Assembly (NCBI GenBank): GCA_049651845.1
Contig: JBASCW010000042.1
Coordinates: forward strand, 37,235 to 101,234
DNA from: Burkholderiales bacterium
GTDB lineage: Bacteria > Pseudomonadota > Gammaproteobacteria > Burkholderiales > SG8-39
DNA: 64,000 nt
Direction: 5' to 3'
Below are positions 9,961 to 34,812 of the stretch, piece by piece. The stretch's first letter is position 1. Each line of letters opens with the position of its first letter. Below the pieces are notes generated by a model that was not told where the DNA came from, made no database searches, and worked only from the letters and a program-made list of their open reading frames with translations. The position numbers and the translations under genes are program-made.

Positions 9961-9976
9961 TGTGTGCTGCCCTACA
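9961..9976 (-). promoter_or_regulatory. Island box o (TGTAGGGCAGCACACA toward 9927)
   Basis: 9/12 defined consensus positions; exactly 33 nt from ATG 9927; GATAGT at +22..27. Confidence 0.5.
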
Positions 9977-10014
9977 TACTCACTCCGCGGTTTGCCGAGT
10001 GCCAAGGCGTCGCG

Positions 10015-10048
10015 AAAAGGCCCGGAGCGAAAATGCCGCTGCCGGGCC
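10015..10048 (-). terminator. Rho-independent terminator after the collagen-like gene
   Basis: Minus strand GGCCCGGCAGCGG-CATTTT-CGCTCCGGGCC followed by TTTT. Confidence 0.5.
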
Positions 10049-10074
10049 CGGACCTGCTTGCTGGAACAAAATGC

Positions 10075-10986
10075 TTAGAGGCTGCTCACCAGCACCTGGA
10101 CCTGGCGGTCACGTTGCAGCTTGGGATCACCGAAGCTGCCATATTGGATCTTATACGCCGGCACGCCCGCCTGCAGCAGCGCGTTACGCACGCTGGCGGC
10201 GCGGTCGCTGGTTCCGTCAAGGGCGACGGTGGCGTTCGGGTTCTGGTTCAGGTAGTTCACGATATCGGACACTTTGCTGTATTCCGAAGCACGCAGTTCC
10301 GACCTGTTGGCATCGAACCAGATGTCGCGGTACGGCGACCAGCGGCCGGGAGCGCCGGCAATGCCGCCCGGGCCTTGCTGACCCGTCGCGCCGATCGCGC
10401 CTTGCGGGCCGGTTGCGCCAGTCGCGCCTGTCGGGCCGGCTACGCCCAGCATCTCGGTGTTGCCCCGCGCTCCCGTGAATCCGGTTGCGCCTTGCGCGCC
10501 GGTGGCTCCCGTCGCGCCAACCGGGCCGGTCGGACCTTCGCGGGTCGGGCCTTGCGCGCCCGTGCTGCCGGCCACGCCTCGCAAGCCCGTAGCGCCCGTC
10601 GCACCCGTCGGACCGGCAGGCCCGGCGATGCTGGAGCCTTGCGCGCCCGTGGCGCCCATCGCGCCTTGCGCGCCCGTCGCGCCGGTAGCACCGGTCGCGC
10701 CCGCGCGGCCGACCACCATCTTGCCCTCGCTGCCCGTCGCGCCGACCGGACCTTGCATGCCTTGCGCGCCCGTGGCGCCCGTCGCGCCTGTCGGTCCGGC
10801 CATCGCCGAACCGGCCGCGCCTGTGGCGCCGGTGTAGCCTTGTGCGCCGGTCGCGCCGGTCGCGCCGGTCGGGCCGGCTGGGCCGACGTAGCTCACCGGC
10901 TCATTGGCGGGCTGCGTCGTTGCGCAACCTGCGGCGAACGCGGCGATCACGGCGAGTGACAGCGCGCTTTTCATTGCTGTTTTCAT
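10075..10986 (-). CDS. Collagen-like (G-X-Y repeat) lipoprotein with degenerate OmpA-like C-terminal domain
   Basis: 303-aa ORF; lipobox AAFAAGC (Cys21); aa 35-216 are G-X-Y triplets; C-terminus [10 protein letters not shown]...[34 protein letters not shown] resembles an OmpA C-like domain. Confidence 0.85.
10339..10884 (-). repeat. Collagen-type GXY coding repeat (five 29-codon units plus a longer terminal block)
   Basis: Five blocks of exactly 9 GXY triplets separated by 2-residue breaks (MA, VV, IA, RE), then EML and 12 more triplets; GATGATGAQ recurs. Confidence 0.85.
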
Positions 10987-11103
10987 GGCAAATCCTTTTG
11001 ATGACCAATGTTAGGTGCGCACGCCATCGAATTCGTTCGTAGCGGAATCGTGGGTGCGCACTACGATTCGTAAGTCAACTTACGCGGTCCGATCGTCTCA
11101 TTC

Positions 11104-11119
11104 CGTTCGTTGGCACACA
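11104..11119 (-). promoter_or_regulatory. Island box n (TGTGTGCCAACGAACG toward the collagen-like gene)
   Basis: 9/12 positions; followed by GAA and TAAGTT at +22..27; about 90-nt structured leader. Confidence 0.4.
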
Positions 11120-11140
11120 GAGCGGCGCATTTCACTCGAG

Positions 11141-12274
11141 CTAGCGCCCGAGCAGTTCGCCCGCGGGCTTGAGCGCCTCGACGCGATCGCAGACAACCTT
11201 GGTGATGGCCATGATCGGCGCGCCCAGCAGCAGACCCCACAGGCCCCACAGCCAGCCGAAGAACAGCAACGCGATGAACAGCACCGCGGCGTTCACGCGC
11301 GCGAAGCGGCTCTGCAGCCAGGTCATGAAGGCGAAGCCGAGCAGTCCCGCGATCAGCAGCGACGCGCCGGCGACCGCAAGCGCATGGAACAGCGAGCCGA
11401 ACTGCATGAAAGCCGCGATGCCGCTGCCGAGCGCGATCAGCGCAGGACCGAGGTAGGGGATGAAATGAAAGATCCCGGCCGCGGCGCCCCAGACGCCGGC
11501 CTGGTCCAGGCCGAGCGCCAGGAATGCGAGCCAGGTTGCGACGGCGAGCAGCGCGTTCGCGCCGAGCGTGGCGAGCAGGTAGCGCTGCACCTGGACTTCG
11601 ACCTCCTCGAGGATGCGCACCGCATCCTTCTTGCGCGCCATCGACGGCCCGACCAGCTGCACCAGCTTGCGCCGGAAGTGCTCGCCCGAGGCAAGCAGGA
11701 AATAGGTCAGCAGCAGCACGATCGGCGCCTGCGCGGCGACGGTGGCGAGCAGTGCGGACTGCGCCAGCGTGTAATCGCGCAACCAGGTCGGCGCGAGTGG
11801 CGTAGGTGCAACCGCGCGGGCCTTCGGCTTGTCGCCTGCGTCGGCCGCCGCGCCCTGGAGCTCGCTGGCGGCTTCCTGCATGTTCTGCAGCGCGGTCGGG
11901 GCGCCCGAACGCGCGCTGCTCAGGTCCCTGCGCAGTTTGCGCGCGGCTTCGGGCATCTTCTCGATCACCGCAACGGCGTCGTCGCTGAGCGAGAAGCCGA
12001 TCCAGCAGAAGCTCCCGACCACCAGCGACAGAACCAGCGCCGCCCCGACGCTGCGCGGAACGCGCCAGGCCTGCAATCCGTCCACCAGCGGGTGCAGCGT
12101 GTAGCTGGCGAGGATGCCGATCAGCACCGGGACGAAGAAGCCGCGCGCCAGGTACAGGGCAGCGACCAGTGCCAGCAGCGCCAGCATTCCGGTCGCCAGG
12201 TGAAGGGCCGAACGGCCGGAGGCAGGCGCCTCGACCGCCGCGGAATCTGCGGCCGCGGTGCTTGCCTGGTTCAC
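11141..12274 (-). CDS. AI-2E family transporter (PerM/YhhT, UPF0118)
   Basis: 377-aa polytopic membrane ORF with C-terminal GLWGLLLGAPIMAITKVV motif; 1 nt after the BON gene stop (operon). Confidence 0.85.
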   Translation of the reverse strand: MNQASTAAADSAAVEAPASGRSALHLATGMLALLALVAALYLARGFFVPVLIGILASYTLHPLVDGLQAWRVPRSVGAALVLSLVVGSFCWIGFSLSDDAVAVIEKMPEAARKLRRDLSSARSGAPTALQNMQEAASELQGAAADAGDKPKARAVAPTPLAPTWLRDYTLAQSALLATVAAQAPIVLLLTYFLLASGEHFRRKLVQLVGPSMARKKDAVRILEEVEVQVQRYLLATLGANALLAVATWLAFLALGLDQAGVWGAAAGIFHFIPYLGPALIALGSGIAAFMQFGSLFHALAVAGASLLIAGLLGFAFMTWLQSRFARVNAAVLFIALLFFGWLWGLWGLLLGAPIMAITKVVCDRVEALKPAGELLGR

Positions 12275-12275
12275 G

Positions 12276-12839
12276 TTACTTCTTGATGCTCATTTCGTTG
12301 CCGATACCCGTCACGCCGTCCACTTTGCGGGTGATCGCGACGGCCTGGTCGATCTGCGCCTGGCTGTCGACGAAGCCGCTGAGCTGAACTTCGCCCTTGC
12401 GGGTGACGACGGCGATGTCGAAACTCTTGACGCCTGGATCGGCAAGCAATGCCGATTTCACCCTGGTGGTGATGATGCCGTCATCGACCTGGCTGCCCGC
12501 CGTGGTGTTCCCGGTTTTCAGGCTGACGTTGCTCTCGATGCCCTTGACGCCCTCGACGCCTGCCGTCGCCTCGAGTGCGCGGTCGATCTGCGCCTGGCTG
12601 TCGACGAAGCCGCTGAGTTGGACCACGCCCTTGCGCGTTTCGACTTTCAGATCGAAGCTCTTGATGTCAGCGTCGGCGAGCAGCGCCGATTTCACTTTCG
12701 TCGTGATCACGGTGTCGTCGATCTGCGTGCCTACCGTGGTGCTCGCGGCAGCCGACGGAGCCGGGTCCTGCCAGATACCGCAGCCTGCGGCAAGGACGCT
12801 GACCGCGCCCAGGATGAGGAGTTTGCGTTCGATGTACAT
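12276..12839 (-). CDS. BON-domain lipoprotein (OsmY-like, two BON domains)
   Basis: 187-aa ORF; lipobox LAAGC; two repeats of IDDxxITTKVKSALLAD...VxTRKGxVQLSGFVDSQAQID. Confidence 0.85.
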   Translation of the reverse strand: MYIERKLLILGAVSVLAAGCGIWQDPAPSAAASTTVGTQIDDTVITTKVKSALLADADIKSFDLKVETRKGVVQLSGFVDSQAQIDRALEATAGVEGVKGIESNVSLKTGNTTAGSQVDDGIITTRVKSALLADPGVKSFDIAVVTRKGEVQLSGFVDSQAQIDQAVAITRKVDGVTGIGNEMSIKK

Positions 12840-12902
12840 GAGGGTGGAATCCGGGGAAGAAGAAGGAGGAGGACGATCTTCGGCTCACTGCCGCGCACGG
12901 TC

Positions 12903-12918
12903 TGTACGCTGGCGAGCA
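12903..12918 (-). promoter_or_regulatory. Island box a (TGCTCGCCAGCGTACA toward BON/AI-2E operon)
   Basis: 11/12 positions; followed by GAC and GAAGAT at +22..27. Confidence 0.55.
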
Positions 12919-12974: not shown

Positions 12975-12990
12975 TGTACGCTGGCGTACA
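12975..12990 (+). promoter_or_regulatory. Island box b (TGTACGCTGGCGTACA toward Crp paralog 1), perfect palindrome
   Basis: 12/12 positions; 33 nt from ATG 13024; CTACAT/TACATT at +22..28. Confidence 0.6.
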
Positions 12991-13023
12991 TACGCTGGCG
13001 GCGATGGGTGACTACATTCGGCG

Positions 13024-13719
13024 ATGCTGGAAAACAGTCTGCTGGCCGCGATGCCCCGCCAGGCGAGCCGGCGCATGCTCTCGGGGCTCGAGCCAGTCAC
13101 GCTGGCCTTCGGTGACGTGCTCTACGAGCCCGGACAAGCCATCCGGGATGTCTACTTTCCCGGCGCTTCCCTGGTGTCCTTGCTGACGCTGGCGGACGGG
13201 CATCTGGCGCTCGAAGTCGGGCTGATCGGCCGGGAAGGCATGGTCGGCATACCGCTGATCCTGGGACACAGCCTGTCGCCGGTGCGCGCGCTGGTCCAGG
13301 GCAGCGGGTCGGCGCTGCGCATGGCGGCGGCACCCTTCCGCAAGGAACTGCGGCGCAACCCGGCGCTGCAGCGAGAGCTTTACCGCTACACCTACACGTT
13401 GATGGCGCAGATCTCGCAGACCGCGGCCTGCAACCGCTTTCACGTGGTCGATCAGCGCCTCGCGCGCTGGCTGCTGATGACCCACGATCGCATGAAGTCG
13501 GACCGGTTCCATATGACGCACGAGTTCCTCGGACACATGCTGGGCGTACGTCGGGTCGGCGTCACCAAGGCGGCCCAAACGCTGCAGGCGCGCGACCTGA
13601 TCAGCTACAGCCGCGGCGACATCACGGTACTCGACCGCAAGGGTCTCGAGGCCGCTGCCTGCCAGTGCTATGAGGTCGTCAAGGACATGCACGACGGCAG
13701 GCAGGCTGGCAGCGCATAG
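13024..13719 (+). CDS. Crp/Fnr-family transcriptional regulator (paralog 1)
   Basis: 231-aa ORF; cNMP-binding-like beta-barrel then HTH MLGVRRVGVTKAAQTLQARDLISYSRG; paralogous to 15769..16536 and 34838..35647. Confidence 0.85.
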   Translation: MLENSLLAAMPRQASRRMLSGLEPVTLAFGDVLYEPGQAIRDVYFPGASLVSLLTLADGHLALEVGLIGREGMVGIPLILGHSLSPVRALVQGSGSALRMAAAPFRKELRRNPALQRELYRYTYTLMAQISQTAACNRFHVVDQRLARWLLMTHDRMKSDRFHMTHEFLGHMLGVRRVGVTKAAQTLQARDLISYSRGDITVLDRKGLEAAACQCYEVVKDMHDGRQAGSA

Positions 13720-13798
13720 AAAAAGGCCCGGAACGGGGTTGCCGTTTCGGGCCTAGTGTTGCAGGTGTTCGTCTAAGGGAGGAGAAGGGCGAACACCC
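13720..13798 (-). ncRNA. Candidate box-driven small RNA with CU-rich (anti-SD) loop and intrinsic terminator
   Basis: Box c, CATGAT -10, predicted +1 at 13798; GGTGTTCG/CGAACACC stem with loop CCCTTCTCCTCCCTTAGA; terminator GGCCCGAAACGG-CAAC-CCCGTTCCGGGCC plus TTTTT; no conserved ORF. Confidence 0.45.
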
Positions 13799-13831
13799 GT
13801 GAACATCATGTCCCGGCACACAGACTATTTC

Positions 13832-13847
13832 CGTGCGCTGGCGAACG
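13832..13847 (-). promoter_or_regulatory. Island box c (CGTTCGCCAGCGCACG toward sRNA candidate)
   Basis: 10/12 positions; lies in a 21-nt stretch identical to 34751-34771; CATGAT at +22..27. Confidence 0.5.
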
Positions 13848-15449: not shown

Positions 15450-15511
15450 GGTTTCTTCCGGTGATTTGGGGGGTGTCGAACGGCAGCATGCGCCGCGGCG
15501 GCGCGCCAATC

Positions 15512-15527
15512 TGCGTGGCAGCACACA
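15512..15527 (-). promoter_or_regulatory. Island box p (TGTGTGCTGCCACGCA toward OmpA-like gene), weakest copy
   Basis: 8/12 positions but first 11 nt identical to box o; GAT then CATGCT at +22..27. Confidence 0.35.
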
Positions 15528-15556: not shown

Positions 15557-15572
15557 TGTAGGCCGGCGCACG
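15557..15572 (+). promoter_or_regulatory. Island box m (TGTAGGCCGGCGCACG toward lmo0937-type gene)
   Basis: 10/12 positions; GAA then GATGAT at +22..27; SD AAGGAGA before ATG 15627. Confidence 0.5.
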
Positions 15573-15626
15573 GAACAGCCCGGGGAGTGGCTGGATGATG
15601 CGTGCCATCAACCAAGGAGATCCAGC

Positions 15627-15776
15627 ATGCTTTACATCATCGCCGTCGTTCTTCTCGTCCTCTGGGCACTGGGGTTGGTTTCGGCCTACACCATGGGCGG
15701 ATTCATCCACGTTCTGCTGGTGATCGCAGTCGTGGTCGTCCTGCTCAGACTGATCAGCGGGCGCAGCCCTATCTGA
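15627..15776 (+). CDS. lmo0937-family small membrane protein (49 aa), absent from the ORF track
   Basis: AAGGAGA SD 8 nt upstream; MLYIIAVVLLVLWALGLVSAYTMGGFIHVLLVIAVVVVLLRLISGRSPI matches this family's pattern. Confidence 0.7.
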   Translation: MLYIIAVVLLVLWALGLVSAYTMGGFIHVLLVIAVVVVLLRLISGRSPI

Positions 15777-16536
15777 CGGCGACCGGGATGCTCTGCCGGT
15801 GCCGCACGTCGGAAAGCAGGCGGCCCAGCTCCTTCTTCACCACGCCGTAGCACTCGCAGGCGAGCGTTTCCAGCCCGGAGCGCTCGAGCACCGAAATGTG
15901 GCCGCGCCGGTAGCGGATGTAGCCGGCCTGCTGCAGCTTGCCGGCCGCCTGCGTGATGCCTTCGCGGCGCACACCGAGCATGCTGGCCACCAGTTCCTGC
16001 GTCATCACCAGCTCGCGCGAGGGTATCCGGTCCAGCGTCAGCAGCAGCCAGCGGCACAGCTGCTGCTCTACCGAATGGTGGCGATTGCAGGCGGCGGTCT
16101 GGAACATCTGCGTGATCAGCGCCTGCGTGTAGCGCAACAGCAGGCTGCGCATCAGGCCGGCACGGCTGAATTCGCGCTTCAGCACGTTGCTCGCCAGCCG
16201 GTAGGCGTGGCCCGCGGTCTGCACGACCGCGGAGCTCGGCGTCGTGTCGCCGCCCATGAACAACGAAATTCCGACCACGCCTTCGTTACCCACGCCCGCA
16301 GTCTCCGCAGAAGCGCCGGTCTCCATGACGTAATGAAGCGACACGATGGAGGTGGTGGGGAAGTAGGCATGCTGCATTTGTCCGCCGGGCTCGTAGAGGA
16401 TCATCCCCAGTGGCATTGCAAACAGCTCCAGGTCGGGCGCCAGACGCTCGAACTCGGCGCCGGGCAGCGCGGCAAGCAGGTGATTCTGGTCCGGACTGTG
16501 AGGCGCGGCCACCGCGGGCTGATGGAAGCGCTTCAC
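15769..16536 (-). CDS. Crp/Fnr-family transcriptional regulator (paralog 2), last gene of HK-RR-Crp operon
   Basis: 255-aa ORF; GTG start shares one nt with the upstream stop (TAGTG); HTH MLGVRREGITQAAGKLQQAGYIRYRRG; close paralog of 34838..35647. Confidence 0.85.
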   Translation of the reverse strand: MKRFHQPAVAAPHSPDQNHLLAALPGAEFERLAPDLELFAMPLGMILYEPGGQMQHAYFPTTSIVSLHYVMETGASAETAGVGNEGVVGISLFMGGDTTPSSAVVQTAGHAYRLASNVLKREFSRAGLMRSLLLRYTQALITQMFQTAACNRHHSVEQQLCRWLLLTLDRIPSRELVMTQELVASMLGVRREGITQAAGKLQQAGYIRYRRGHISVLERSGLETLACECYGVVKKELGRLLSDVRHRQSIPVAVR

Positions 16537-17357
16537 TAGCGTTTCGCGCTGACTTCCACGCCGATGCCGCGGTAGCCGATGAAGCGGCTGGAGCGGTTGA
16601 ACATCGGCTCGCCGCTCACCCGGAACTGCTGCTGCGTTCCGTCGGGTTCGACGCGGCTGAAAAGGAAATCCAGGAACGGCTGCCGCGCCGCGATCGTCGC
16701 CTGCAGCTCCTCGCGCTGCGCCTCGTTCCAGCCCGTCATCAGGGCGCCGTTCGAATCGCCCGCGAGAGAGCCGACGCGCAGGCCGAGCATTTCCAGCACC
16801 GGGCCGGAAACCTTGGTGAAATTCCCTGCTTCGTCCTGCTCCCAGTACCAGTCGGAGGCGAGTTCGGTCAGGCTGCGGTAGCGCGCTTCGCTCTCGCGCA
16901 GTTCGGCGGTTCGTTCCAGAACCGTCTGCTCGAGTGCCTTGCTGTAGTTTTCGAGCTTCCGGTAGAGCAGCCGCACTTCGAGCATGTTGCGGATGCGCGT
17001 CCTGACCTCCACCAGGTCGAAAGGCTTGCTGATGAAGTCCTTCGCGCCGGCCTGCAGCGCGCGCAGCTTGTGGCCGGGTTGCGCGGTGAGAACCAGGACC
17101 GGCAGGTAGGCATCGGCGTCGTTGGTCTTGAGCGCTTCGATCACCTGGAATCCGTCCATGCCGGGCATCTGCAGGTCGAGCAGGATCAGGTCGTAGCAGT
17201 TCCGGCGGTGCAACACGCAGACTTCCAGCGGGTCTATGGTCGAGCTGACGCTGGTGTAGCCGGCCTCGCGCAGCATCTGCCCCAGCAGGCTGATGTTCAC
17301 TTCCTGGTCGTCGACGATCAGGATGCGGGCGTTCAGGATCTCGGATTCGGCAATCAT
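16536..17357 (-). CDS. Response regulator: receiver domain + coiled linker + PAS domain (no DNA-binding output)
   Basis: 273-aa ORF; ILIVDDQ...DLILLDLQMPGMDG...KPF receiver motifs, then SEARYRSLTELASDWYWEQDEAGNFT PAS-like; ATGA overlap with the HK stop. Confidence 0.85.
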   Translation of the reverse strand: MIAESEILNARILIVDDQEVNISLLGQMLREAGYTSVSSTIDPLEVCVLHRRNCYDLILLDLQMPGMDGFQVIEALKTNDADAYLPVLVLTAQPGHKLRALQAGAKDFISKPFDLVEVRTRIRNMLEVRLLYRKLENYSKALEQTVLERTAELRESEARYRSLTELASDWYWEQDEAGNFTKVSGPVLEMLGLRVGSLAGDSNGALMTGWNEAQREELQATIAARQPFLDFLFSRVEPDGTQQQFRVSGEPMFNRSSRFIGYRGIGVEVSAKR

Positions 17358-19030
17358 TGTGCTTGTGCCCCTGCCGCCGCGGCGCTTGATGCGGTTTTCG
17401 AGCCGCTGAGTGCTCTGTCCAGCGCGTTCATGAACTCGTCGACCTTGATCGGCTTGGTGAGATAGTCGAAGAATCCGGCCTCGAGCGCGCGTGCGATGTC
17501 GCGCGGGACCGCGTTGGCGCTGAGTGCGATGATCGGGATATGCATCGTGGCGGGGTCCGCGCGCAGGATTTTCATGGCTTCGATCCCGCTGATGCCGGGC
17601 AGGTTGATGTCCATCAGGATCACCTTCGGCTGGCAGGCGCGCGCAAACTCGATTCCGAGGCTGCCGTCCGCGGCGCTGAGCATGCGCAGGTCAGGCCGGC
17701 GTGCGACCAGCTGCTCGACCAGCTCCAGGTTGGCTGGATTGTCCTCGACGTAGAGCACGGTGCGCAGCGGCGTGCCGTCCGGCACCTGCGCTCGCTCTAC
17801 AGCCGCCCCGGCCGCTTGCAGGACCGCGAGCTGAGGCGCCGGCGCCAGGGCCAGCTCGAACCAGAACACGCTGCCTTCGCCAACCACGCTGTCGACGCCG
17901 ATCGCGCCGCCCATGAGACCCACCAGCCGCTTGCTCACCACCAGGCCGATGCCCGTGCCTTCCTCGGTGCTCGCTTCCTTGCCGAGGCGGTTGAAGGGCT
18001 GGAACAGCTGCGCCACCTGTTCCGGCGACAGGCCCGCGCCGGAGTCGCGGATGCCGATGCGGATCGTGCCCGGGGGCTTGTGGGCGCATTCCACGGCCAC
18101 CGCGCCGCCCGGCTTGTTGTACTTGATCGCGTTGAACAGCAGATTGATCAGCACCTGCTTGACCCGGGTGCGGTCCGCCTTGACGAAGTTGGGCGTGTCG
18201 AAGCGCGGAAACGTCATGCCGATGTCGCGCTTCTGCGCTTGCGGCTCGATCATCGCCCGGCACTCGAGCATGACCTCTGCCAGCGAGACCGGCTCGCTCG
18301 ACAGGGTCAGCTTGCCCGACTCGATCAGCGCCAGATCGAGGATCTCGTTGATCAGCTCCAGCAGGTACCAGCCGGCCTTGAGGATCTGGTCGAGGTTGCG
18401 CTTCTGCGAGAGCGTCGGCGCGGGCGTACCGGTCGCCATCAACTGGGCGAAGCCGAGGATCGCGTTCAGCGGCGTGCGCAGCTCATGGCTCATGCCGGAG
18501 AGGAAATCGGACTTCGCCCGGCTGGCCGTCTCGGCCGCCGCCATGGCCTCGTTCAGCTTGGACTCGACGCGTTTGCGCACCGAGTTGTCGCTGCCGATCA
18601 GCAGATAGCCGATGATCTTGCCGAATTCGTCGCGCAGACCCGTGATCGACACGATCGCAGGAAAGCGGCTGCCATCCTTGCAGACATAAGTCAACTCATA
18701 GGTGTCTGCGATGCCGCGCGATGCCTTGTAGGCGAGCGCCTCGAATCCCGGCGCGATCGGGGTGCCGAGCTCCAGGCTCAGGGCCTGGGCACGCGCCGCA
18801 ACTTCCAGCGGGTCGTGCATGTCGCTCGGGCTGATCCGGTCCACGACCTCGGCGGCGGCGTAGCCGAGCATGCGTTCGGCGCCGACGTTGAACAGCTGGA
18901 TGATGCCCTTCTCGTCGGTCGCGATGATCGAAAAATTGGCGCTGGTGAGGATCGCGTACTGCAGGGCGCCCGTCTTCAGCAGCGCCCGCTGGCGCCTCGC
19001 CTCTGTAGCGCCGATTTCCGGTGTGGCCAT
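17354..19030 (-). CDS. Hybrid sensor histidine kinase (PAS-HisKA-HATPase-REC)
   Basis: 558-aa ORF; H-box SHELRTPLNAILGF, N/G boxes (NAIKYNKPGG, DSGAGL, GTGIGL), C-terminal receiver VLYVEDNPANL...ILMDINLPGISG. Confidence 0.9.
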   Translation of the reverse strand: MATPEIGATEARRQRALLKTGALQYAILTSANFSIIATDEKGIIQLFNVGAERMLGYAAAEVVDRISPSDMHDPLEVAARAQALSLELGTPIAPGFEALAYKASRGIADTYELTYVCKDGSRFPAIVSITGLRDEFGKIIGYLLIGSDNSVRKRVESKLNEAMAAAETASRAKSDFLSGMSHELRTPLNAILGFAQLMATGTPAPTLSQKRNLDQILKAGWYLLELINEILDLALIESGKLTLSSEPVSLAEVMLECRAMIEPQAQKRDIGMTFPRFDTPNFVKADRTRVKQVLINLLFNAIKYNKPGGAVAVECAHKPPGTIRIGIRDSGAGLSPEQVAQLFQPFNRLGKEASTEEGTGIGLVVSKRLVGLMGGAIGVDSVVGEGSVFWFELALAPAPQLAVLQAAGAAVERAQVPDGTPLRTVLYVEDNPANLELVEQLVARRPDLRMLSAADGSLGIEFARACQPKVILMDINLPGISGIEAMKILRADPATMHIPIIALSANAVPRDIARALEAGFFDYLTKPIKVDEFMNALDRALSGSKTASSAAAAGAQAQ

Positions 19031-19081: not shown

Positions 19082-19115
19082 ACCTTGCACCATGGCGCTT
19101 TGCCTGGCCGGCGTC

Positions 19116-19131
19116 TGTGCGGCTGCGCACA
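19116..19131 (-). promoter_or_regulatory. Island box i (TGTGCGCAGCCGCACA toward HK-RR-Crp operon)
   Basis: 11/12 positions, 6-4-6 palindrome; GAC then CATGGT at +22..27. Confidence 0.55.
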
Positions 19132-19144: not shown

Positions 19145-19983
19145 TCAGGGCGACGGGCAGGGCGCCTCGAAGCGGCGCGCCGCGTCGGACCAGTCGACGA
19201 CGGTCCACCACTGCTTCAGGTAGTCGCCGCGGCGGTTCTCGTAATTCAGGTAGTAGGCGTGTTCCCAGACGTCGTTCACGAGCAGCGGGTACTGGCCCTG
19301 CACGAGGGGATTGCCGTGCCCGAAGGTGGTCAGGATCTCGAGCCTGCCGTCGTTGTGCTGCGACCGGGTCAGCCAAATCCAGCCCGAGCCGAAGTAGTTC
19401 GCGCCCGCATCCTAGAATTGCGACTTGAACCGCTCGAAGCTGCCGAATTCGTCGTTGATCGCAGCGGCCAGCGCACCCGTGGGCGCGCCGCCCCCGTCGG
19501 GTGACATGGCGCGCCAGAACAGGCTGTGATTGACGTAGCCGCCGGCATTGTTGCGGATCGCCGCCTGCGCGGCATCAGGGATGCGGATGAGATTGAGCAG
19601 CAGCCAGGCCGCCGAACGCTGGTGCGGATCCGGATACTGCTCGATCGCCGAGTTCAGCTTCTTCACGTACGACGCGTGATGCTTGCCGTGATGCAGCTGC
19701 ATGGTGCGCGCGTCGATGTGCGGCTCCAGCGCGTCGTGCGCGTAGGGCAGGGCCGGGAGCAGGTGCTTCGCGCAAGGTTCCACTAGATCGTCCATCTGGG
19801 CGCCGATGCGGGCGGGCTGGCGTAGTGCTCGGTCGGCGCAGGCGACGGCATGGGCTTGCGCTTGTCGGGCACCGCGCCGCCCGCAGCGCCACGCGCAGGC
19901 GGCACATAGGCCGACTGATGGATCGCCGCCGCGGTGGCGGCGGGTACCAGCAGGAGCAGCGCAAGGATGACCGCGTGTTTCAT
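19145..19983 (-). pseudogene. Fe/Mn superoxide dismutase, disrupted (in-frame TAG at 19412-19414; signal-peptide ORF in a different frame)
   Basis: LPALPYAHDALEPHIDARTMQLHHGKHH...FKSQF*DAGANYFGSGWIWL...DVWEHAYYLNYENRRGDY; the 66-aa MKHAVILALLLLVPAATAAA ORF (19783-19983) overlaps the SOD ATG (19795) out of frame. Confidence 0.6.
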
Positions 19984-20016
19984 GCCGCGATTGTCGTTTC
20001 GCCAGCCGGGCGTTTC

Positions 20017-20032
20017 TGTGCGTTGTCGAACA
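20017..20032. promoter_or_regulatory. Island box j (TGTGCGTTGTCGAACA), equidistant from two divergent ATGs
   Basis: 10/12 positions; 33 nt to ATG 19983 (-) and 33 nt to ATG 20066 (+); GACAAT and TAAATA at +22..27. Confidence 0.55.
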
Positions 20033-20065
20033 GAACTGCGCGTCGTTCTGGCGTAAATACGCAGT

Positions 20066-20293
20066 ATGAAATCCTTCCTCGTCGCCGGAATCGTCATGAT
20101 CGTGCTGGGCGGAATCTCGCTCGGCTACAACTACACCTACACGACCAAGGAGACGGTGCTCCAGGTCGGGCCGCTCAAGGCCGTTGCCGAGGAGTCGCAT
20201 ACCGTGGCGGTGCCGGCGATCCTGGGGTGGGTGCTCGTCGTCGGCGGCATCTGCGTGGTCGCCTTCGGCGCCCTATCCAAGAAGAGTTCGTAA
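20066..20293 (+). CDS. Small two-TM membrane protein (75 aa)
   Basis: MKSFLVAGIVMIVLGGISLG...ILGWVLVVGGICVVAFGAL; two hydrophobic helices; box 33 nt upstream. Confidence 0.6.
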   Translation: MKSFLVAGIVMIVLGGISLGYNYTYTTKETVLQVGPLKAVAEESHTVAVPAILGWVLVVGGICVVAFGALSKKSS

Positions 20294-29130: not shown

Positions 29131-29231
29131 AAATGGAAGAGGCCCGGAACGGGATCGCCGTCGCCGAGCCTCGGTGCGTCAGGTGTCCACCAGTAGGAGC
29201 GCCCGTCAGGGGGAGACGAGCCAGAACACCT
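29131..29231 (-). promoter_or_regulatory. Leader of the glucan synthase gene: sRNA-like 5' element with C-rich loops and terminator-like hairpin
   Basis: Predicted +1 at 29231 from box d; 5' AGGTGTTC and 3' CCCGTTCCGGGCCT shared with the 13720-13798 RNA; hairpin then TCTTCCATTTTT running into the TTG start. Confidence 0.4.
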
Positions 29232-29264
29232 ACCTAAATGATGCGTCGCGCCTGCGGAGCTGTC

Positions 29265-29280
29265 TGTACGCTAGCGCACA
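29265..29280 (-). promoter_or_regulatory. Island box d (TGTGCGCTAGCGTACA toward glucan synthase leader)
   Basis: 12/12 positions; GAC then CATCAT at +22..27; 6 nt after the upstream gene's stop codon. Confidence 0.6.
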
Positions 29281-29286: not shown

Positions 29287-30402
29287 CTAGATGGCAACGA
29301 GTGCGCCGTTTTCAATCCTGACCCGGCTGCCGACGCTGAATGCGGGCTGTGCGGGGTAGGAAACCGTTTGCGAGCCGCCGTTCTCCAGGCGCACCACCAA
29401 GTCGAAGTGCTTGGTGGATTTCATCTTTTTCTCGATTTCATTGCCGGCCCAGGCACCGCCCGCGGCGCCGGCGATCTGGGCCACGGTGGTGCCCGTGCCA
29501 TGGCCGACCTGGCTGCCGAGCAGCGCGCCGACCACGCCGCCGCCGATCATGCCGATATAGCTGCCGTCGCCCTTGACCTCGACCACGTTGATCGCCTCGA
29601 CCACGCCGCAATTGGGACAGATCTGGCGCGCGGCGGGCGCCGGTGCCGCCGCCTGGCGGCCAGTCGTGCGCTGCCGTGCGGATGAGCTGTCGACCAGCGG
29701 CTTGCCAAGGACCTTGCTGTGCTCCTGCTGGCCGATGCGCAGGTTCCCCGTGACGACCGCATTGGTTGCGATCCTGTCGCGATTCCTGATGGTGTACGCA
29801 CCCTCGTAGGCGCCGGCCCTGACTTCCTCCAGGTTGATCTTGCCGCGGACGCCGTTGATCCTGACGCTGGCGTTGCCGCTTGGGCTGCCCTCGAGAGCGA
29901 AAACGAGTTCCGAGCCCGGCGTGAGGCTGCGCGGCGGATCCACGTTGAAGAGGTTGATTTCCGGGACGCTGTTCGCGGCCGCCGAACCGCCCGGCCAGCG
30001 GAAGCCGGAGCCCTTCACCAGCGATTCGTCGAGAACGCTGCTGGCCACCTGATTGCCCCGGCGCAGATTGGCCGTGGCGGTGCTGTCCTCGGTGATCTGG
30101 TCGCGCCGGGTGATGGTGTAGATGCCTTCGTAGACGCCGGCTTCGATTTCTTCCAGGATCAGGCTCCCGGTCGCTCCGCCGATGCGCACGGTCGCGGTAC
30201 CAGCGGGGCTGCCGTAAAGCGTGAACACGAGCTCGCTGCCGGCGACCGGCTTCGCGGTGGGTACGACATCGAAGCCATCGATTCTGGGAGCCGCGTTCTG
30301 CGACGCGGACTGCTGCGCCAGCACGGTGTTCGAAGGGAGCGCCAGTGGCAGGAACGCTGCCAGTGCGAGGAGGGTTGCGCCGAGTCCGTGGTTTAGGTTC
30401 AT
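29287..30402 (-). CDS. Secreted protein: two tandem ~90-aa beta-rich repeats + CxxC/glycine-zipper 2TM module
   Basis: 371-aa ORF; signal peptide; repeats aa 39-127 and 147-236 (GSELVFxLxGSPxGxAxVRIxG...EEhxAGxYEGxYTI); C-terminus CPNCGVV...GGGVVGALLGSQVG...GNEIEKK. Confidence 0.75.
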   Translation of the reverse strand: MNLNHGLGATLLALAAFLPLALPSNTVLAQQSASQNAAPRIDGFDVVPTAKPVAGSELVFTLYGSPAGTATVRIGGATGSLILEEIEAGVYEGIYTITRRDQITEDSTATANLRRGNQVASSVLDESLVKGSGFRWPGGSAAANSVPEINLFNVDPPRSLTPGSELVFALEGSPSGNASVRINGVRGKINLEEVRAGAYEGAYTIRNRDRIATNAVVTGNLRIGQQEHSKVLGKPLVDSSSARQRTTGRQAAAPAPAARQICPNCGVVEAINVVEVKGDGSYIGMIGGGVVGALLGSQVGHGTGTTVAQIAGAAGGAWAGNEIEKKMKSTKHFDLVVRLENGGSQTVSYPAQPAFSVGSRVRIENGALVAI

Positions 30403-30435
30403 CGGCGCATCTTTGCGCTTCGCTGTCCGGCCGTC

Positions 30436-30451
30436 CGTACGCTATCGCACC
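30436..30451 (-). promoter_or_regulatory. Island box e (GGTGCGATAGCGTACG toward 30402)
   Basis: 9/12 positions; 33 nt from ATG 30402; GAC then AAAGAT at +22..27. Confidence 0.5.
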
Positions 30452-30574: not shown

Positions 30575-30590
30575 TGTTGGCAAGCGCACA
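30575..30590 (+). promoter_or_regulatory. Island box k (TGTTGGCAAGCGCACA toward 30645)
   Basis: 11/12 positions; CAAAGT at +22..27; SD AAGGAGA before ATG 30645. Confidence 0.45.
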
Positions 30591-30644
30591 GAGCGAGTCC
30601 GGCAAGAGGGGCAAAGTGGCAATCAGCAAACAAGGAGAACGGAA

Positions 30645-31154: not shown

Positions 31155-31226
31155 CGCTCCAGAAAGGCACAAGCATGGCGTGTGTGTCAGGCAGTCCGGA
31201 TCCAACTCAAACTGAAGGAACTGAAA

Positions 31227-31476: not shown

Positions 31477-31492
31477 TGTACGGTGGCGTACG
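31477..31492 (+). promoter_or_regulatory. Island box f (TGTACGGTGGCGTACG toward entericidin-like gene)
   Basis: 10/12 positions; GAC then TATCGT at +22..27. Confidence 0.5.
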
Positions 31493-31544
31493 GACCGGCA
31501 GCGCTGCGCCCACTATCGTGGCACTTCACGACAGGAGATCGACC

Positions 31545-31735: not shown

Positions 31736-32848
31736 GTGCGCGTGGCGCCTGCCCTGCTGCGCGAATGGCCGCTGGTTGCGGTCGTCGCGACCACCATCCT
31801 GTTTCTGGCCTTCGGGCGGCGACTGCGCGCCGACCTGGCGCATCCGGTCCAGTTCGCTTTCATCCTGGTCTGGCTGGTAGCCGCGATCCTCGCGGCCGTA
31901 TTCGCGGTGGTGCGGCATGCCGAGGGGCTCGCCGCACGCCTGGGCGAGCCCCTGGGCACCCTGGTATTGACGCTGTCGATCACCGGGATCGAGGTGATGA
32001 TCATCGTCGCCGCGATGTCCACGGGGCACGGCAGCCCCACGCTGGCGCGCGATGCGATGTTCGCGGTGATCATGATCGTCCTGAACGGCATGGTCGGACT
32101 GACGCTGCTCGTCGGCGGGCTGAAGTACCGCGAGCAGGACTACAACCTGCAGGGCGCGAATGCCTTCCTGGCGGTGATCCTGCCGCTGGCCATCGTCGGC
32201 CTGGTGCTGCCGAACTACACCATCTCATCGCCCGACAAGACGTTTTCGCCCGGCCAGGCGGCGTTCCTCACGCTCGTGTTCCTAGCGCTGTACGGCGTGT
32301 TCCTGACCATCCAGAACATCCATTACCGGGCCTACTTCCGGTCGACCGTCGAGGCGAACAAGGCCAAACCGCCGCCGCGCGGGAGCAAGGAGTGGCACTC
32401 CATTCCCTACCATGTGCTCCTGCTGCTGGCGTACTTGGGGCCGTTGACGGTGCTCGCGGAACAGCTCGCAGTGCCGATCGACCACACCATCCGCGTGCTG
32501 GGCGCACCGGTCGCGCTGGCGGGTTTCCTCGTCGCAGCGATCGTGCTCGCGCCCGAATCGGTCGTCGCGGTGCGCGCTGCGGCGAGCAACGACCTGCAAA
32601 GGGCCGTCAATGTCCTGCTCGGGTCGGTGCTTGCTAGCATCGGCTTGAGCATTCCCGCCATCCTCATCTACGGGCTGCTGGCCGGCGTGCCGATCGTCCT
32701 CGGCCTGGACCAGGTGGGCATCACGCTGCTGGCGCTGACTCTGGTCCTGTGCATGATGACCTTCTCGAGCAGCCGTACCCATGTGCTGCTCGGGGCGGTG
32801 CACCTGGTGGTGTTCCTCGCGTACGCAATGCTGGTGTTTCACACCTAG
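31736..32848 (+). CDS. Ca2+/H+ antiporter (CaCA/ChaA-like)
   Basis: 370-aa polytopic ORF with two internal alpha-repeat regions (GTLVLTLSITGIEVMIIV / APESVVAVRAAASNDLQRAVNVLLGS); GTG start. Confidence 0.75.
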   Translation: MRVAPALLREWPLVAVVATTILFLAFGRRLRADLAHPVQFAFILVWLVAAILAAVFAVVRHAEGLAARLGEPLGTLVLTLSITGIEVMIIVAAMSTGHGSPTLARDAMFAVIMIVLNGMVGLTLLVGGLKYREQDYNLQGANAFLAVILPLAIVGLVLPNYTISSPDKTFSPGQAAFLTLVFLALYGVFLTIQNIHYRAYFRSTVEANKAKPPPRGSKEWHSIPYHVLLLLAYLGPLTVLAEQLAVPIDHTIRVLGAPVALAGFLVAAIVLAPESVVAVRAAASNDLQRAVNVLLGSVLASIGLSIPAILIYGLLAGVPIVLGLDQVGITLLALTLVLCMMTFSSSRTHVLLGAVHLVVFLAYAMLVFHT

Positions 32849-32918
32849 GCACCGCGTTCCGCCAGCCCTGCCAGTCCCGCATGCGGTCGAGCCGCGACGG
32901 CCGGCCGCTTCGCTCAGC

Positions 32919-33437
32919 CTAGCTGCGGCCCAGATCCTGGATCGCGTCGACCACCATGCCAGTACCGATCGCGATCATGAGGATGTCGGACGCGACTCGT
33001 ACGTAGCGGTAGCCGGACGGCGGCTGGCCGATCTGCAGCACCAGCGGCTGCGGCACCGAGTAAAAGACCACGTCGCGCGGCAGTTGCTGGCCCATATGCC
33101 ACTTCCTGGCCTGGCCCGGCGGCATGCAGCCGTTGTGCTTCTTGGCCAGTCCCGGGGGACAGCGCCCGCCGTGATTGTGCTCGTCGTAGTAATCGCGCAC
33201 CGCGACGCGATGGCGGTCCTCGAAATGCTCGCGCCTGTCGCTGTCGTGCGACCGCTTCCCGCCGGCATCACGATGCTCGTTCTTGTCAGAGCGCTGATGC
33301 TTGCCCGAGTGCTCGCTCCTGTCGGAGTTGCCCTTGCCGGCCGAGGCAGGCTTGTCCGCCATCGCCGGGCCGACCGCCAGGATTCCGGCGAACGCCAGGG
33401 CCAGGGTGCTTTTCAGTATCAGCGTGGTTGGTTTCAT
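32919..33437 (-). CDS. CigR/RcnB-like periplasmic protein
   Basis: Start MKPTTLILKSTLALAFAGILAVGPAMA at 33437; His/Asp/Arg-rich region then PPGLAKKHNGCMPPGQARKW...PPSGYRYVRVASDILMIAIGTGMVVD. Confidence 0.7.
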   Translation of the reverse strand: MKPTTLILKSTLALAFAGILAVGPAMADKPASAGKGNSDRSEHSGKHQRSDKNEHRDAGGKRSHDSDRREHFEDRHRVAVRDYYDEHNHGGRCPPGLAKKHNGCMPPGQARKWHMGQQLPRDVVFYSVPQPLVLQIGQPPSGYRYVRVASDILMIAIGTGMVVDAIQDLGRS

Positions 33438-33470
33438 CAGGCCAGTATTCCTTCCGGCGGGCAGGCGGTC

Positions 33471-33486
33471 TGTGCGCCAACACACA
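33471..33486 (-). promoter_or_regulatory. Island box l (TGTGTGTTGGCGCACA toward 33437)
   Basis: 10/12 positions; 33 nt from ATG 33437; GAC then AATACT at +22..27. Confidence 0.5.
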
Positions 33487-33502
33487 GCGCTCGCCAGTCG
33501 TG

Positions 33503-34195
33503 CTAGCGATTCCACCCATGCAGGACGACGCCCGGGTACATCGGCATGACTTCGGCGTCCTCGAACCGGCTGGTGCGCAGGCGGGCTTCGCCGGCGAGGT
33601 TCTTGTCGGACAGCGACCGGATTAGTCCGTCCACGCCGCGCTCACGGACGATGCCCGCAAAGGTCTCCCGATAGGTCGTTACCAGGCTCACGCCTTCGAT
33701 CTTGATGTCGTAGACCTTCCATCCGGTCGCGAGGTGCTCCATGTCGTAATCTATCGTCAGCGGCGCCGTTCCGGGCTGCCGGATGGCGGACTTGACGGTG
33801 ACTTCGGTATCGCCGGGCGCCGCGCGCAGCGGCTTGAACTCGACGACCTGGTCGCGATAGCTCGACAGCGCGGTGGAGTAGGTGCGCACCAGCAGGGTCT
33901 TGAATTCCGCGGTGAGCGCCGCCTGCTGGGCGGGCGTGGCCAAGGGCCAGCTGCGCGCTGCGGCGATCTGCGTCATGCGGTGAAAATTGAAGTGCGGCAG
34001 GATCCGCGCCTCGACCAGGTTGGCGACCTTCGCCGGGTTGCCGGCCTGTATCTCCATGTCCTGCCGAATGAGTGCAAGCACTTCCGCGGTGACCGTCTTC
34101 AGGAGCACATCCGGTGCGATGTCCTGGGCGGGGTAGCCGGGCGGCGCGACAGACGATGCAAGCGCGAAAACCAGAGACAGTACGGCTCTGTTCAT
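33503..34195 (-). CDS. MlaC/Ttg2D-family phospholipid-binding periplasmic protein
   Basis: 230-aa ORF; signal peptide; ILPHFNFHRMTQIAAARSW...FKTLLVRTYSTALSSY...GWKVYDIKIEGVSLVTTYR. Confidence 0.8.
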   Translation of the reverse strand: MNRAVLSLVFALASSVAPPGYPAQDIAPDVLLKTVTAEVLALIRQDMEIQAGNPAKVANLVEARILPHFNFHRMTQIAAARSWPLATPAQQAALTAEFKTLLVRTYSTALSSYRDQVVEFKPLRAAPGDTEVTVKSAIRQPGTAPLTIDYDMEHLATGWKVYDIKIEGVSLVTTYRETFAGIVRERGVDGLIRSLSDKNLAGEARLRTSRFEDAEVMPMYPGVVLHGWNR

Positions 34196-34204
34196 GCGTG
34201 GCCC

Positions 34205-34684
34205 TTACAGGTCGACCAATACGAGCTCGATTCCGTTACGTACGAGCTTCTTGCCGTCGGGCAGCGTCAGGTAAGGCGCCGCCTGTTCGGCGGTGAGGCC
34301 ATAAGCGAAGGACATCGGACCGCGGCTGAAGCTGCCGGAGCCGTGGCCGTTGAAAAGCGTCAGGCGCTTGAACCAGAAGCGTGCCGTGGTGCCGTCGCTG
34401 CAACGGAGCTGTCCCGAGCCACCTAGCGCTGCGCTTGACGTGAAATCGCCGGCGCATGCGAGCGCGGGGTCCTTCTGCGAATGAATGGCGATGGTCCCGG
34501 CGCCGCTGAGGTGGCCTTCGGCCTCGCCGACGAAGAGCTCGCCGCCGAGGATTGCGATCACCGGGCCGGTGGACGACAGGAATCCCGCGCCCGCCCCGGT
34601 TGCCGCAGCCATACCCATGCCCACGGCGGCGATCGCAATCAGCATGCGTCGTATCCGGTTGCCGTCAATCTGAAGCAAGTTCAT
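34205..34684 (-). CDS. Hypothetical secreted/membrane-anchored protein (159 aa)
   Basis: Start MNLLQIDGNRIRRMLIAIAAVGMGMAAATG at 34684 with AAGGAAA SD; 9 nt upstream of the MlaC-like gene. Confidence 0.55.
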   Translation of the reverse strand: MNLLQIDGNRIRRMLIAIAAVGMGMAAATGAGAGFLSSTGPVIAILGGELFVGEAEGHLSGAGTIAIHSQKDPALACAGDFTSSAALGGSGQLRCSDGTTARFWFKRLTLFNGHGSGSFSRGPMSFAYGLTAEQAAPYLTLPDGKKLVRNGIELVLVDL

Positions 34685-34752
34685 CTTGTTTCCTTGCCGT
34701 GAAGCACTGGTGCGCGCTGCAGTCGAATCTACGCAACGCGGCGGGCGCAGTC

Positions 34753-34768
34753 CGTGCGCTGGCGAACG
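34753..34768 (-). promoter_or_regulatory. Island box g (CGTTCGCCAGCGCACG toward 34684/MlaC-like operon)
   Basis: Identical to box c; GAC then TAGATT at +22..27. Confidence 0.5.
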
Positions 34769-34796
34769 CAAAAGACGATGACGGCGCTGCGGGCTA

Positions 34797-34812
34797 TGTG
34801 CGATAGCGCACA
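34797..34812 (+). promoter_or_regulatory. Island box h (TGTGCGATAGCGCACA toward Crp paralog 3)
   Basis: 11/12 positions, perfect 5-6-5 palindrome; TAGAAT at +21..26. Confidence 0.55.

Follow-up and report, generated by a model that had tools for sequence, protein, structure and literature searches.

In the window analysed here, 64,000 nucleotides of contig JBASCW010000042.1 from the Burkholderiales bacterium assembly GCA_049651845.1 (G+C content 67%), a palindromic 16-bp box recurs 16 times within a gene island that extends from 9.5 to 35.7 kb. We consider it likely that an uncharacterised Crp/Fnr subfamily uses this box as its operator. The island encodes three regulators of this subfamily, Crp1, Crp2 and Crp3, which would most likely serve as class II activators of an envelope and stress regulon. 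The island is bordered on the left by uvrB (7444-9495) and on the right by rne and rluC (35895-39864). Its right flank is dense in genes, nearly all of which are encoded on the + strand.

An earlier sequence-only reading of this DNA had listed the 16 boxes by eye, and every 16-mer was found at the given position and in the given orientation. Taken alone, the number of matches to the degenerate consensus TGTNCGCNNGCGNACA is unimpressive, with 13 in the window at up to two mismatches compared to 7.9 in shuffled sequences, and at up to three mismatches the matches are rarer than expected. Twelve of these 13 matches lie in intergenic DNA of the island, and all boxes are confined to 2.9 kb of such DNA. 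It is this placement, rather than the raw count, that is the extreme feature of the boxes. We built a symmetric position weight matrix (PWM) on the 16 boxes, scored them in a leave-one-out scheme and used 12 bits as working threshold. The boxes reached 11.0-23.4 bits, with at least 12.9 bits in 15 of 16. Apart from them not a single position in the 64 kb reached 12 bits, while random 64-kb sequences from a Markov-1 model yield 1.9 such matches on average. Therefore, the list is complete at the 12-bit threshold and the flanks are empty. The two runners-up, with 10.8-10.9 bits, both lie within coding sequence, and the best score in the flanks was 7.7 bits, in agreement with the impression that the housekeeping genes lack the box. 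Moreover, when all 3- and 4-mer dyads were enumerated without bias, the one that stood out was TGT-N10-ACA, which occurs eight times in 2.86 kb of island intergenic DNA, not once in 3.25 kb of flank intergenic DNA and ten times in the whole window. The target genes and the three Crp/Fnr paralogs that had been named from the sequence were recovered by Pfam and NCBIfam.

The boxes are tied to a -10 element by a nearly invariant distance. The pattern NAnnnT was tallied at each offset on both sides of each box, which amounts to 32 flanks in the window and 254 flanks in related loci (see below). In the window, 15 of the 32 flanks have it after exactly 21 nt, compared to about one elsewhere. Two promoters depart from this distance, that of Crp1 (gap 22) and that of Crp3 (gap 20). 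In the relatives the count was 101 of 254 flanks at gap 21 and another 33 at gap 22, compared to about ten at other offsets. The sequence-only reading was thus right about a hexamer at a fixed distance but not about its range, which is 21 ± 1 nt instead of 22-27 nt. With the hexamer at -12 to -7 and the box ending 21 nt ahead of it, the box covers -49 to -34 and is therefore centred at -41.5, which is the class II geometry of CRP and FNR that had been proposed. The CRP-like layout holds as well, in the form TGT-N10-ACA with equal information in both halves.

When the boxes of the window and the relatives were oriented by the -10 element alone, the full palindrome proved to be 20 bp long (T-N-box-N-A), with T at -51 in 87% and A at -32 in 96%. 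Two flanking bases are asymmetric, namely G-33 (83%) and C-31 (50%). The -35 hexamer of sigma-70 promoters, TTGACA, occupies -35 to -30, and G-33 and C-31 coincide with its G and C. This explains the trinucleotide GAC that had been noticed behind the boxes; GAC or GAA indeed follows 12 of the 16 boxes and GA follows 14. The -35 remnant of the box promoters reads xxGACx. Strict GAC was discarded as an orientation marker, as it is present in just 31 of 128 boxes of the relatives and the -10 element orients them better. The -10 element itself is minimal, with selection on A-11 and T-7 only and T-12 at 38%. With such a feeble -10 and a remnant of a -35, the box promoters should therefore need an activator.

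The predicted start sites can be checked internally against the coding sequences. Six open reading frames (ORFs) have their ATG at the predicted +1, the seventh base past the hexamer, corresponding to a 5' untranslated region of 0 or -1 nt. These are the ORFs starting at 9927 (secreted DUF4124-like protein), 13024 (Crp1), 19983 (secreted superoxide dismutase, SOD), 20066 (75-aa membrane protein), 30402 (glycine-zipper protein) and 33437 (CigR-like protein). Four of the products carry signal peptides, one is a membrane protein and one is Crp1. Judged from these positions, the six regulon genes appear to be leaderless. The remaining promoters have leaders of 19-84 nt, several of them with GGAG-type Shine-Dalgarno sequences. 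In the window and the relatives together, a start codon was found 4-8 nt past the -10 element in 21 of 131 ORFs downstream of a box, in 19 of them at 5-7 nt.

As had been claimed, each of the three Crp paralogs lies behind a box-bearing promoter, and the pairing of box and Crp gene is kept in 16 related loci. Crp1 is encoded at 13024..13719 (+ strand; recognition helix GVRRVGVTKAAQTLQ), Crp2 at 15769-16536 (- strand) and Crp3 by an ORF at 34838..35647 (+ strand; recognition helix GVRREGVTEAAGKLQ), for which TTG 34892 is the likelier start, as it follows a Shine-Dalgarno-like stretch AAAGGTGAG. They are the sole DNA-binding regulators found among the island ORFs scanned with Pfam. Their mutual identity is 44-67%. 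All three match HTH_Crp_2 (58.7, 47.4 and 60.2 bits for Crp1, Crp2 and Crp3; cut-off 27), and the match to cNMP_binding is weak (18.6, 25.1 and 30.2 bits; cut-off 27.5). An AlphaFold2 model of Crp2 (predicted local distance difference test score, pLDDT, 83.6; predicted template modelling score, pTM, 0.81) retrieved GlxR, CRP of Mycobacterium tuberculosis, FNR, Clr and NtcA as top matches in Foldseek, with a probability of 1.0, template modelling scores of 0.6-0.78 and identities of 15-22%. No named subfamily was reached in NCBIfam, where all matches of Crp1-3 were far under cut-off. The better of them was the NtcA equivalog TIGR03697 for Crp3 (28.3 vs 244.95 bits), which Crp1 and Crp2 did not match. 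Look-ups of the exact proteins returned one 1.8-kb Logan contig or no match.

For a comparison of residues, Crp1-3 were aligned to the E. coli CRP sequence, which was entered by hand (identity 15-19%). The recognition helices read VRRVGVTK, VRREGITQ and VRREGVTE in Crp1, Crp2 and Crp3 vs CSRETVGR in CRP. Arg180 of CRP is retained in all three paralogs, Glu181 is retained in Crp2 and Crp3 and replaced by Val in Crp1, and Arg185 is replaced by Lys, Gln or Glu. As established by CRP-DNA structures, CRP uses these three residues to recognise the GTG core. Retention of Arg180 and Glu181 together with loss of Arg185 therefore fits a TGTG..CACA core with a changed fifth base. Besides, the position of Arg82 is Pro in Crp1-3 and Glu72 is unconserved. 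Arg82 and Ser83 of CRP hold the cyclic phosphate of cAMP, and control by cAMP is therefore unlikely. An FNR-type cysteine cluster was not found either, as Crp1-3 have no N-terminal cysteines; the box is without TTGA, and NCBIfam gives no FNR match for the three proteins. Crp1-3 and their homologs share three other, invariant cysteines. The first belongs to the hinge motif QTAACNRHH, and the remaining two form part of a C-terminal CxCY that stands on an extra helix past the winged helix-turn-helix domain; the three may constitute a redox or metal site. The own box of Crp1 reads GTA..TAC and those of Crp2 and Crp3 read GTG..CAC. Paralog-specific sub-motifs were rejected, since no correlation between Glu or Val and G or A emerged across 89 helix-turn-helix domains (HTHs) of the family and their upstream boxes.

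Box and regulators recur together in other genomes. The closest genomes with Crp1 homologs are uncultured Burkholderiales and betaproteobacterial metagenome-assembled genomes (MAGs), with up to 83% identity. As relatives we used 29 loci around Crp1 homologs of uncultured Burkholderiales, 434 kb in total. They contain 142 boxes of at least 12 bits, which corresponds to 21 per 64 kb or about ten times the random rate. The box stands in front of Crp-family genes in 16 loci, of the gene for the 49-aa membrane peptide in 10, of the hybrid kinase operon in eight, of BON in six, of CsbD in five and of OmpA-like genes in four; it is also present upstream of an NdvB homolog in one locus (L029). The order of hybrid kinase (HK), response regulator (RR) and Crp2 is kept in seven relatives, and the adjacency of RR and Crp2 also in L010. 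The syntenic module comprises, in this order, AI-2E, BON, CsbD, Crp1, Gly-zipper, OmpA-like, peptide, Crp2, RR, HK and NdvB. In the relatives the cluster does not adjoin uvrB or rne, and it therefore moves as a unit. In many of them a Crp1-like gene (helix RRVGVTK) is immediately preceded by a Crp3-like gene (helix RREGVTE), with one box before the pair, at about 9000-10700 in each of L003, L005, L006, L008, L013, L014, L018 and L022. In the window the Crp1 and Crp3 genes are 21 kb apart and not in tandem. Such tandem pairs might give rise to heterodimers.

The family extends to cultured bacteria. At 63-70% identity, carriers are found in Burkholderia, Ralstonia, Cupriavidus, Variovorax and Acidovorax, in many cases on plasmids or chromids, and more distant homologs are present on plasmids of Rhizobium and Sinorhizobium. 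On a plasmid of B. multivorans the regulator lies amid BON, AI-2E, Spy/CpxP, PRC-barrel, DUF3309, CsbD and antiporter genes, and the boxes read GTACG-N6-CGTAC, followed by a -10 element at 21 nt. The Pseudomonas aeruginosa element pKLC102 encodes a Crp3-like protein with an identical recognition helix next to a GH94/NdvB-type gene. A PWM scan of its 103.5 kb gave five matches of at least 11 bits, all at 86.9-99.2 kb around the Crp gene, and no box in the remaining ~85 kb; three intergenic boxes bear GA(C/G) and a -10 element at 21 nt, and transcription is predicted to start 34-35 nt past the box ends at record positions 94966, 99104 and 99161. The cargo end of this conjugative element (L153-L155, record 83988-99200) holds the Crp3-like regulator, the GH94/NdvB-like glucan synthase, a fatty-acid desaturase and the three box promoters.

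In metagenomes the regulator family has more than 8000 close homologs. Here we picked stretches by the bare motif TGTGCGCNNGCGCACAGAC alone; at least 120 were found and 120 were examined, most of them 1-6 kb long. Among the matches listed, NAnnnT was present at gap 21 or 22 in 89 (74%), with about 8% expected from background, and 24 (20%) encoded the regulator family at 55-88% identity. By our estimate, chance alone would place a member of a family with about three copies per genome in well under 1% of stretches of a few kb.

Several points speak against activation by Crp1-3 through this box. For this organism the support is sequence inference throughout, and the box distribution in it covers 64 kb of a 120-kb contig. 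Of the 143 boxes in window and relatives, 47 are without NAnnnT at gap 21. Moreover, with the regulator gene in 20% of the box-selected stretches among the matches listed, linkage is an enrichment and not a rule. A covariation of the residue at CRP position 181 (Glu/Val) with box position 4 (G/A) was looked for and not found, and the assignment of protein to DNA therefore stands without proof from specificity residues. Finally, a site that overlaps the -35 region could equally serve a repressor. Among the alternatives we rank repression first: the same proteins would bind the same box, and the dimer on the -35 region would block RNA polymerase until a signal arrives. The box does overlap the first bases of the -35 hexamer, and autoregulated Crp/Fnr proteins can repress. 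Nevertheless, we regard this as unlikely. Promoters with xxGACx and no conserved -10 bases other than A-11 and T-7 are intrinsically so weak that derepression would hardly suffice to make them fire, and a distance to the -10 element that is rigid to within 1 nt over hundreds of sites in several taxa is a hallmark of class II activators touching RNA polymerase. A single site at -41.5 on both sides, as in the box at 20017, also suits activation.

It is less probable still that another factor reads the box, either a regulator from another part of the genome or an alternative sigma factor using ...CACAGAC as its -35 element, and that the Crp genes are mere targets. The 80% of box-selected metagenome stretches (among the matches listed) without a Crp-family gene within reach would be expected in this case, as would the missing covariation between helix and bases in the 89 family HTHs, and the G-A-C conserved from -33 to -31 resembles a -35 element. 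However, half-sites that are equally conserved over 20 bp point to a dimeric regulator instead of a sigma factor, and a TGT-N10-ACA layout at -41.5 is specific to Crp/Fnr regulators. Beside the boxes this family is enriched at least 30-fold if its 20% is set against the well under 1% that we estimate for stretches taken at random, Crp1-3 are without competitor among the scanned island ORFs, and the boxes of pKLC102 gather around its single Crp gene. That the palindromes are no operators at all, but REP-like intergenic repeats, terminator stems or chance GC-rich palindromes, seems very improbable to us. CGC/GCG dyads are abundant in GC-rich genomes, and the raw count of 13 vs 7.9 would fit such an origin. 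Yet the boxes lie upstream and not downstream of genes, the dyad is preserved although position 4 and the two central bases vary, and a 7-bp stem with a 2-nt loop cannot make a stable RNA hairpin and is not followed by a T-run. The fixed -10 distance, the leaderless start codons and the conservation upstream of orthologous genes are incompatible with repeats or chance. Activation by the Crp/Fnr subfamily is thus the reading we prefer, because spacing rigidity, promoter weakness, dyad symmetry and the co-occurrence data disfavour its rivals.

We propose that a dimer of the regulators, or mixed dimers, would bind T-n-TGTgCGC-nn-GCGcACA-n-A (20 bp) at -41.5 and, most likely, recruit RNA polymerase as a class II activator. 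Otherwise feeble promoters (xxGACx, NAnnnT) would be switched on in this way. The regulon would comprise about 17 transcription units whose products act in the periplasm, the outer membrane or osmotic stress, among them BON, CsbD, entericidin, glycine-zipper and OmpA-like lipoproteins, MlaC, the AI-2E transporter and the cation exchanger, and further the secreted SOD, the cyclic-glucan synthase, a small RNA with a CU-rich loop and the regulators. With the regulators behind their own boxes, positive autoregulation would result. Input is probably provided by the co-transcribed PAS hybrid kinase and REC-PAS regulator, by regulator abundance or by both, and probably not by cAMP. No PAS ligand was suggested by PDB sequence searches with the kinase and the REC-PAS regulator, and in the plasmid collection the REC-PAS protein had REC-level homologs only. 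Homologous gene types are RpoS-controlled in E. coli, and the set of BON/OsmY-like, CsbD, entericidin, glycine-zipper and OmpA-like lipoproteins, MlaC and cyclic-glucan synthase resembles what is governed elsewhere by sigma-S or, in alphaproteobacteria, by EcfG. By analogy, this gene content suggests an osmotic, desiccation or stationary-phase envelope response.

On the left side of the island, promoter 1 (9927..9976, - strand) consists of the box 9961-9976 and the -10 element GATAGT (9934-9939), with +1 at the ATG of the DUF4124-like gene (9927). The sequence-only reading had named DUF4124 as a target. A secreted DUF4124-like protein is indeed encoded there, but its Pfam score of 20 bits is under the 22-bit cut-off. 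Promoter 2 (11070..11119, - strand; box 11104-11119, TAAGTT 11077-11082) precedes a collagen-repeat/OmpA lipoprotein gene (10075-10986), and promoter 3 (12869..12918, - strand; box 12903-12918, GAAGAT 12876-12881) precedes BON (12276-12839) and then the AI-2E transporter (11141-12274). The box of promoter 4 (12975..13025, + strand; box 12975-12990) is a perfect consensus and is followed after a gap of 22 by TACATT (13013-13018) and the ATG of Crp1 (13024). Promoter 5 (13798..13847, - strand; box 13832-13847, CATGAT 13805-13810) stands in a convergent intergenic region. Its box had been listed correctly, but it is predicted to drive a small RNA rather than a protein gene. Two small glycine-zipper genes nearby, at 13855-14076 and ~14129-14500 (both - strand), are without a box, and a sigma-70-like promoter (TTGACC-16-GATCAT, 14715-14688) lies upstream of both. 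Therefore, control by the box is not universal among the island genes.

Promoter 6 (15478..15527, - strand; CATGCT) leads to an OmpA-like protein from 15449 and has the weakest box (15512-15527), with 13.3 bits and 11.0 bits leave-one-out. Promoter 7 (15557..15606, + strand; box 15557-15572, GATGAT) precedes the gene of the 49-aa membrane peptide (15627-15776). Promoter 8 (19082..19131, - strand; box 19116-19131, CATGGT) leads to the HK-RR-Crp2 operon (15769..19030, - strand), which encodes the hybrid PAS histidine kinase (17354-19030), the REC-PAS response regulator (16536-17357) and, as the last gene, Crp2; the reading frames overlap by 4 and 1 nt. The single box of promoter 9 (19983..20066, bidirectional; box 20017-20032) had been recognised, but it serves two divergent leaderless genes whose start codons are 83 bp apart. 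On the + side TAAATA precedes ATG 20066 of the 75-aa membrane protein, and on the - side GACAAT precedes ATG 19983 of the secreted Fe/Mn SOD, whose frame is disrupted. This gene (19145-19983, - strand), leaderless and with a signal peptide, is split into at least three reading frames, with a 66-aa N-terminal ORF from 19983, Sod_Fe_N in the frame 19412-20200 and Sod_Fe_C in 19145-19303. Either the gene is a pseudogene, or indel errors of the long-read MAG assembly have broken its frame.

The best box of all (29265-29280, 24 bits) belongs to promoter 10 (29231..29280, - strand; CATCAT), which is followed by the ndvB leader and the cyclic beta-1,2-glucan synthase gene (20449-29130). Promoter 11 (30402..30451, - strand; box 30436-30451, AAAGAT, ATG 30402) leads to a leaderless gene for a 371-aa glycine-zipper protein. 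On the + strand, promoter 12 (30575..30624; box 30575-30590, CAAAGT) precedes the gene of a 169-aa protein (30645-31154) and then CsbD (31182-31439), and promoter 13 (31477..31526; box 31477-31492, TATCGT) precedes entericidin (31545-31697) and a Na/Ca-exchanger-family protein (31736-32848). Promoter 14 (33437..33486, - strand; box 33471-33486, AATACT, ATG 33437) belongs to the leaderless gene of an RcnB/DUF1236 (CigR-like) protein. Promoter 15 (34719..34768, - strand; box 34753-34768, TAGATT) precedes the gene of a 159-aa protein (34205-34684) and then MlaC (33503-34195), and promoter 16 (34797..34845, + strand; box 34797-34812, TAGAAT, gap 20) precedes Crp3. The boxes 13832-13847 and 34753-34768 are identical 16-mers (CGTGCGCTGGCGAACG on the + strand), and their targets, the small RNA and the operon of the 159-aa protein and MlaC, are unrelated.

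The small RNA (sRNA) candidate downstream of box 13832 (13715..13798, - strand) would be about 80 nt long, starting at the predicted +1 at ~13798. It consists of a 5' hairpin with a CU-rich, anti-Shine-Dalgarno-like loop CCCUUCUCCUCCC and a GC-rich terminator hairpin with a U-run, and has a minimum free energy of -39.5 kcal/mol (z -3.4). Twelve homologs were found in other loci, all of them with box, -10 element and both hairpins. Of the 28 predicted pairs, 14 stay paired through two-sided changes and five fall in the DNA box itself. The box is thus predicted to drive a conserved sRNA candidate. A search of the whole window against Rfam gave one tRNA only at gathering score and no family for the candidate. 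Membership in the Rfam family ar14, the best match below threshold, was rejected (27.9 vs 58.8 bits gathering score).

The ndvB leader (29131..29231, - strand), which starts at the predicted +1 of promoter 10, is similar to the sRNA, with a 5' stem carrying a C-rich loop and a terminator-like hairpin shortly before the ndvB start. The covariance model R1, built on the sRNA sequences, matched it with 43 bits (E ~4e-9 to 6e-8); the fold of the leader alone is not significant (z -1.3). The leader could be an attenuator or a second copy of the sRNA, and ndvB may be reached by read-through of such an element. A further match of a covariance model at 10009-10094 (- strand) was rejected as a second sRNA, as it is mainly a look-alike terminator. 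This terminator follows the collagen/OmpA lipoprotein gene and resembles the sRNA terminator hairpin (GGGCCCGG...CCGGGCC and a U-run), and a similar element adjoins the ortholog in L003.

As a kind, the Crp/Fnr class II regulon is textbook knowledge. The statement of the sequence-only reading that box and regulon had not been described is supported by literature searches by theme, gene set, family and literal motif, which gave no matching description; the box motif is not reported in the CRP/FNR meta-regulon paper or in the B. cenocepacia paper on transcription start sites (TSSs). What appears to be new is the subfamily, its operator, the wiring of three paralogs with a linked phosphorelay, an output of envelope-stress genes and leaderless messages, and the linkage to an sRNA. 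A large Crp/Fnr subfamily without a named function would thereby gain a motif, a promoter grammar and a regulon, and the island suggests how bacteria co-ordinate OsmY/BON, CsbD, entericidin and glycine-zipper proteins with cyclic-glucan synthesis. The rigid rule for box and -10 element makes genome-wide prediction of the regulon easy. In cultivable carriers the exact TSS positions, the leaderless starts and the new sRNA are directly testable predictions, and the regulon turns up repeatedly in soil Burkholderiales as well as on mobile elements, pKLC102 of P. aeruginosa among them. Tentatively, we see in it a possible widespread and undescribed general envelope-stress programme of soil Betaproteobacteria that mobile elements take into pathogens (pKLC102, Burkholderia plasmids). 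It might be run by three cyclic-nucleotide-independent Crp paralogs instead of an alternative sigma factor, with one shared operator, positive feedback and gating by a PAS phosphorelay, and with leaderless mRNAs and an anti-Shine-Dalgarno sRNA among its outputs.

Class II promoters of E. coli CRP share with the island the dimeric Crp/Fnr fold, the TGT-N10-ACA frame (TGTGA-N6-TCACA for CRP), the position at -41.5 and a weak -35 element overlapped by the site. In contrast to CRP, the fifth base of the box is C followed by GC (TGTGCGC) and not A, Crp1-3 deviate from the Arg180/Glu181/Arg185 triad and from Arg82 of the cAMP site, and the regulon consists of envelope and stress genes instead of catabolic ones. 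The NtcA promoters of cyanobacteria (GTA-N8-TAC at -41.5, -10 TAN3T, no -35) are similar in having GT(A/G)-N8-(T/C)AC at -41.5 and a minimal -10 of the NAN3T type. However, the host here is proteobacterial, the core contains an additional conserved CGC/GCG and the gene set is without nitrogen-control content. Clr of Sinorhizobium meliloti (TGTT-N8-AACA) uses the TGT-N10-ACA frame as well. Some of our boxes read TGTTCGC..GCGAACA, and a Clr-DNA complex was among the fold matches. Unlike the island regulators, which lack the phosphate-binding Arg and are 15-16% identical to the Clr chains, Clr depends on cAMP or cGMP, and its regulon is a different one.

SdrP of Thermus thermophilus and other effector-independent Crp/Fnr regulators control stationary-phase and stress genes. 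They resemble Crp1-3 in having no evident cyclic-nucleotide ligand, in the regulation of their own expression and in turning on stress-protection genes, but they have no detectable specific sequence relationship to them and use another operator, and three paralogs with a linked phosphorelay are a feature of the island. The sRNA candidate resembles sRNAs of the alpha-r14/NfeR1 type, which are short, stress-linked and equipped with a CU-rich hairpin loop and an intrinsic terminator. It differs from them by a single CU loop instead of several, by its betaproteobacterial host and by its box-dependent promoter.

The nearest published analogue is the lxa regulon of the low-oxygen-activated locus in B. 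cenocepacia (PMC3721108). In its motif the 4-bp arms of an inverted repeat are separated by 6 bp, and TGA-N6-TCA is shared with Anr/Fnr boxes (PMC3721108). Identity of the two regulons was rejected, as the lxa motif is FNR-like. A homolog on chromosome 2 of B. cenocepacia is 68% identical to Crp2 and has the helix RRSG, a single box nearby and no LysR neighbour; it could not be equated with BCAM0049. The gene content differs, with universal stress proteins and metabolic functions in the lxa regulon, and the boxes described here are without the TGA-N6-TCA core. Nevertheless, both are clustered Burkholderiales regulons for stress or persistence, in which a single palindrome is repeated between many genes and the cluster itself contains genes for two-component systems and for CRP-family regulators (PMC3721108).

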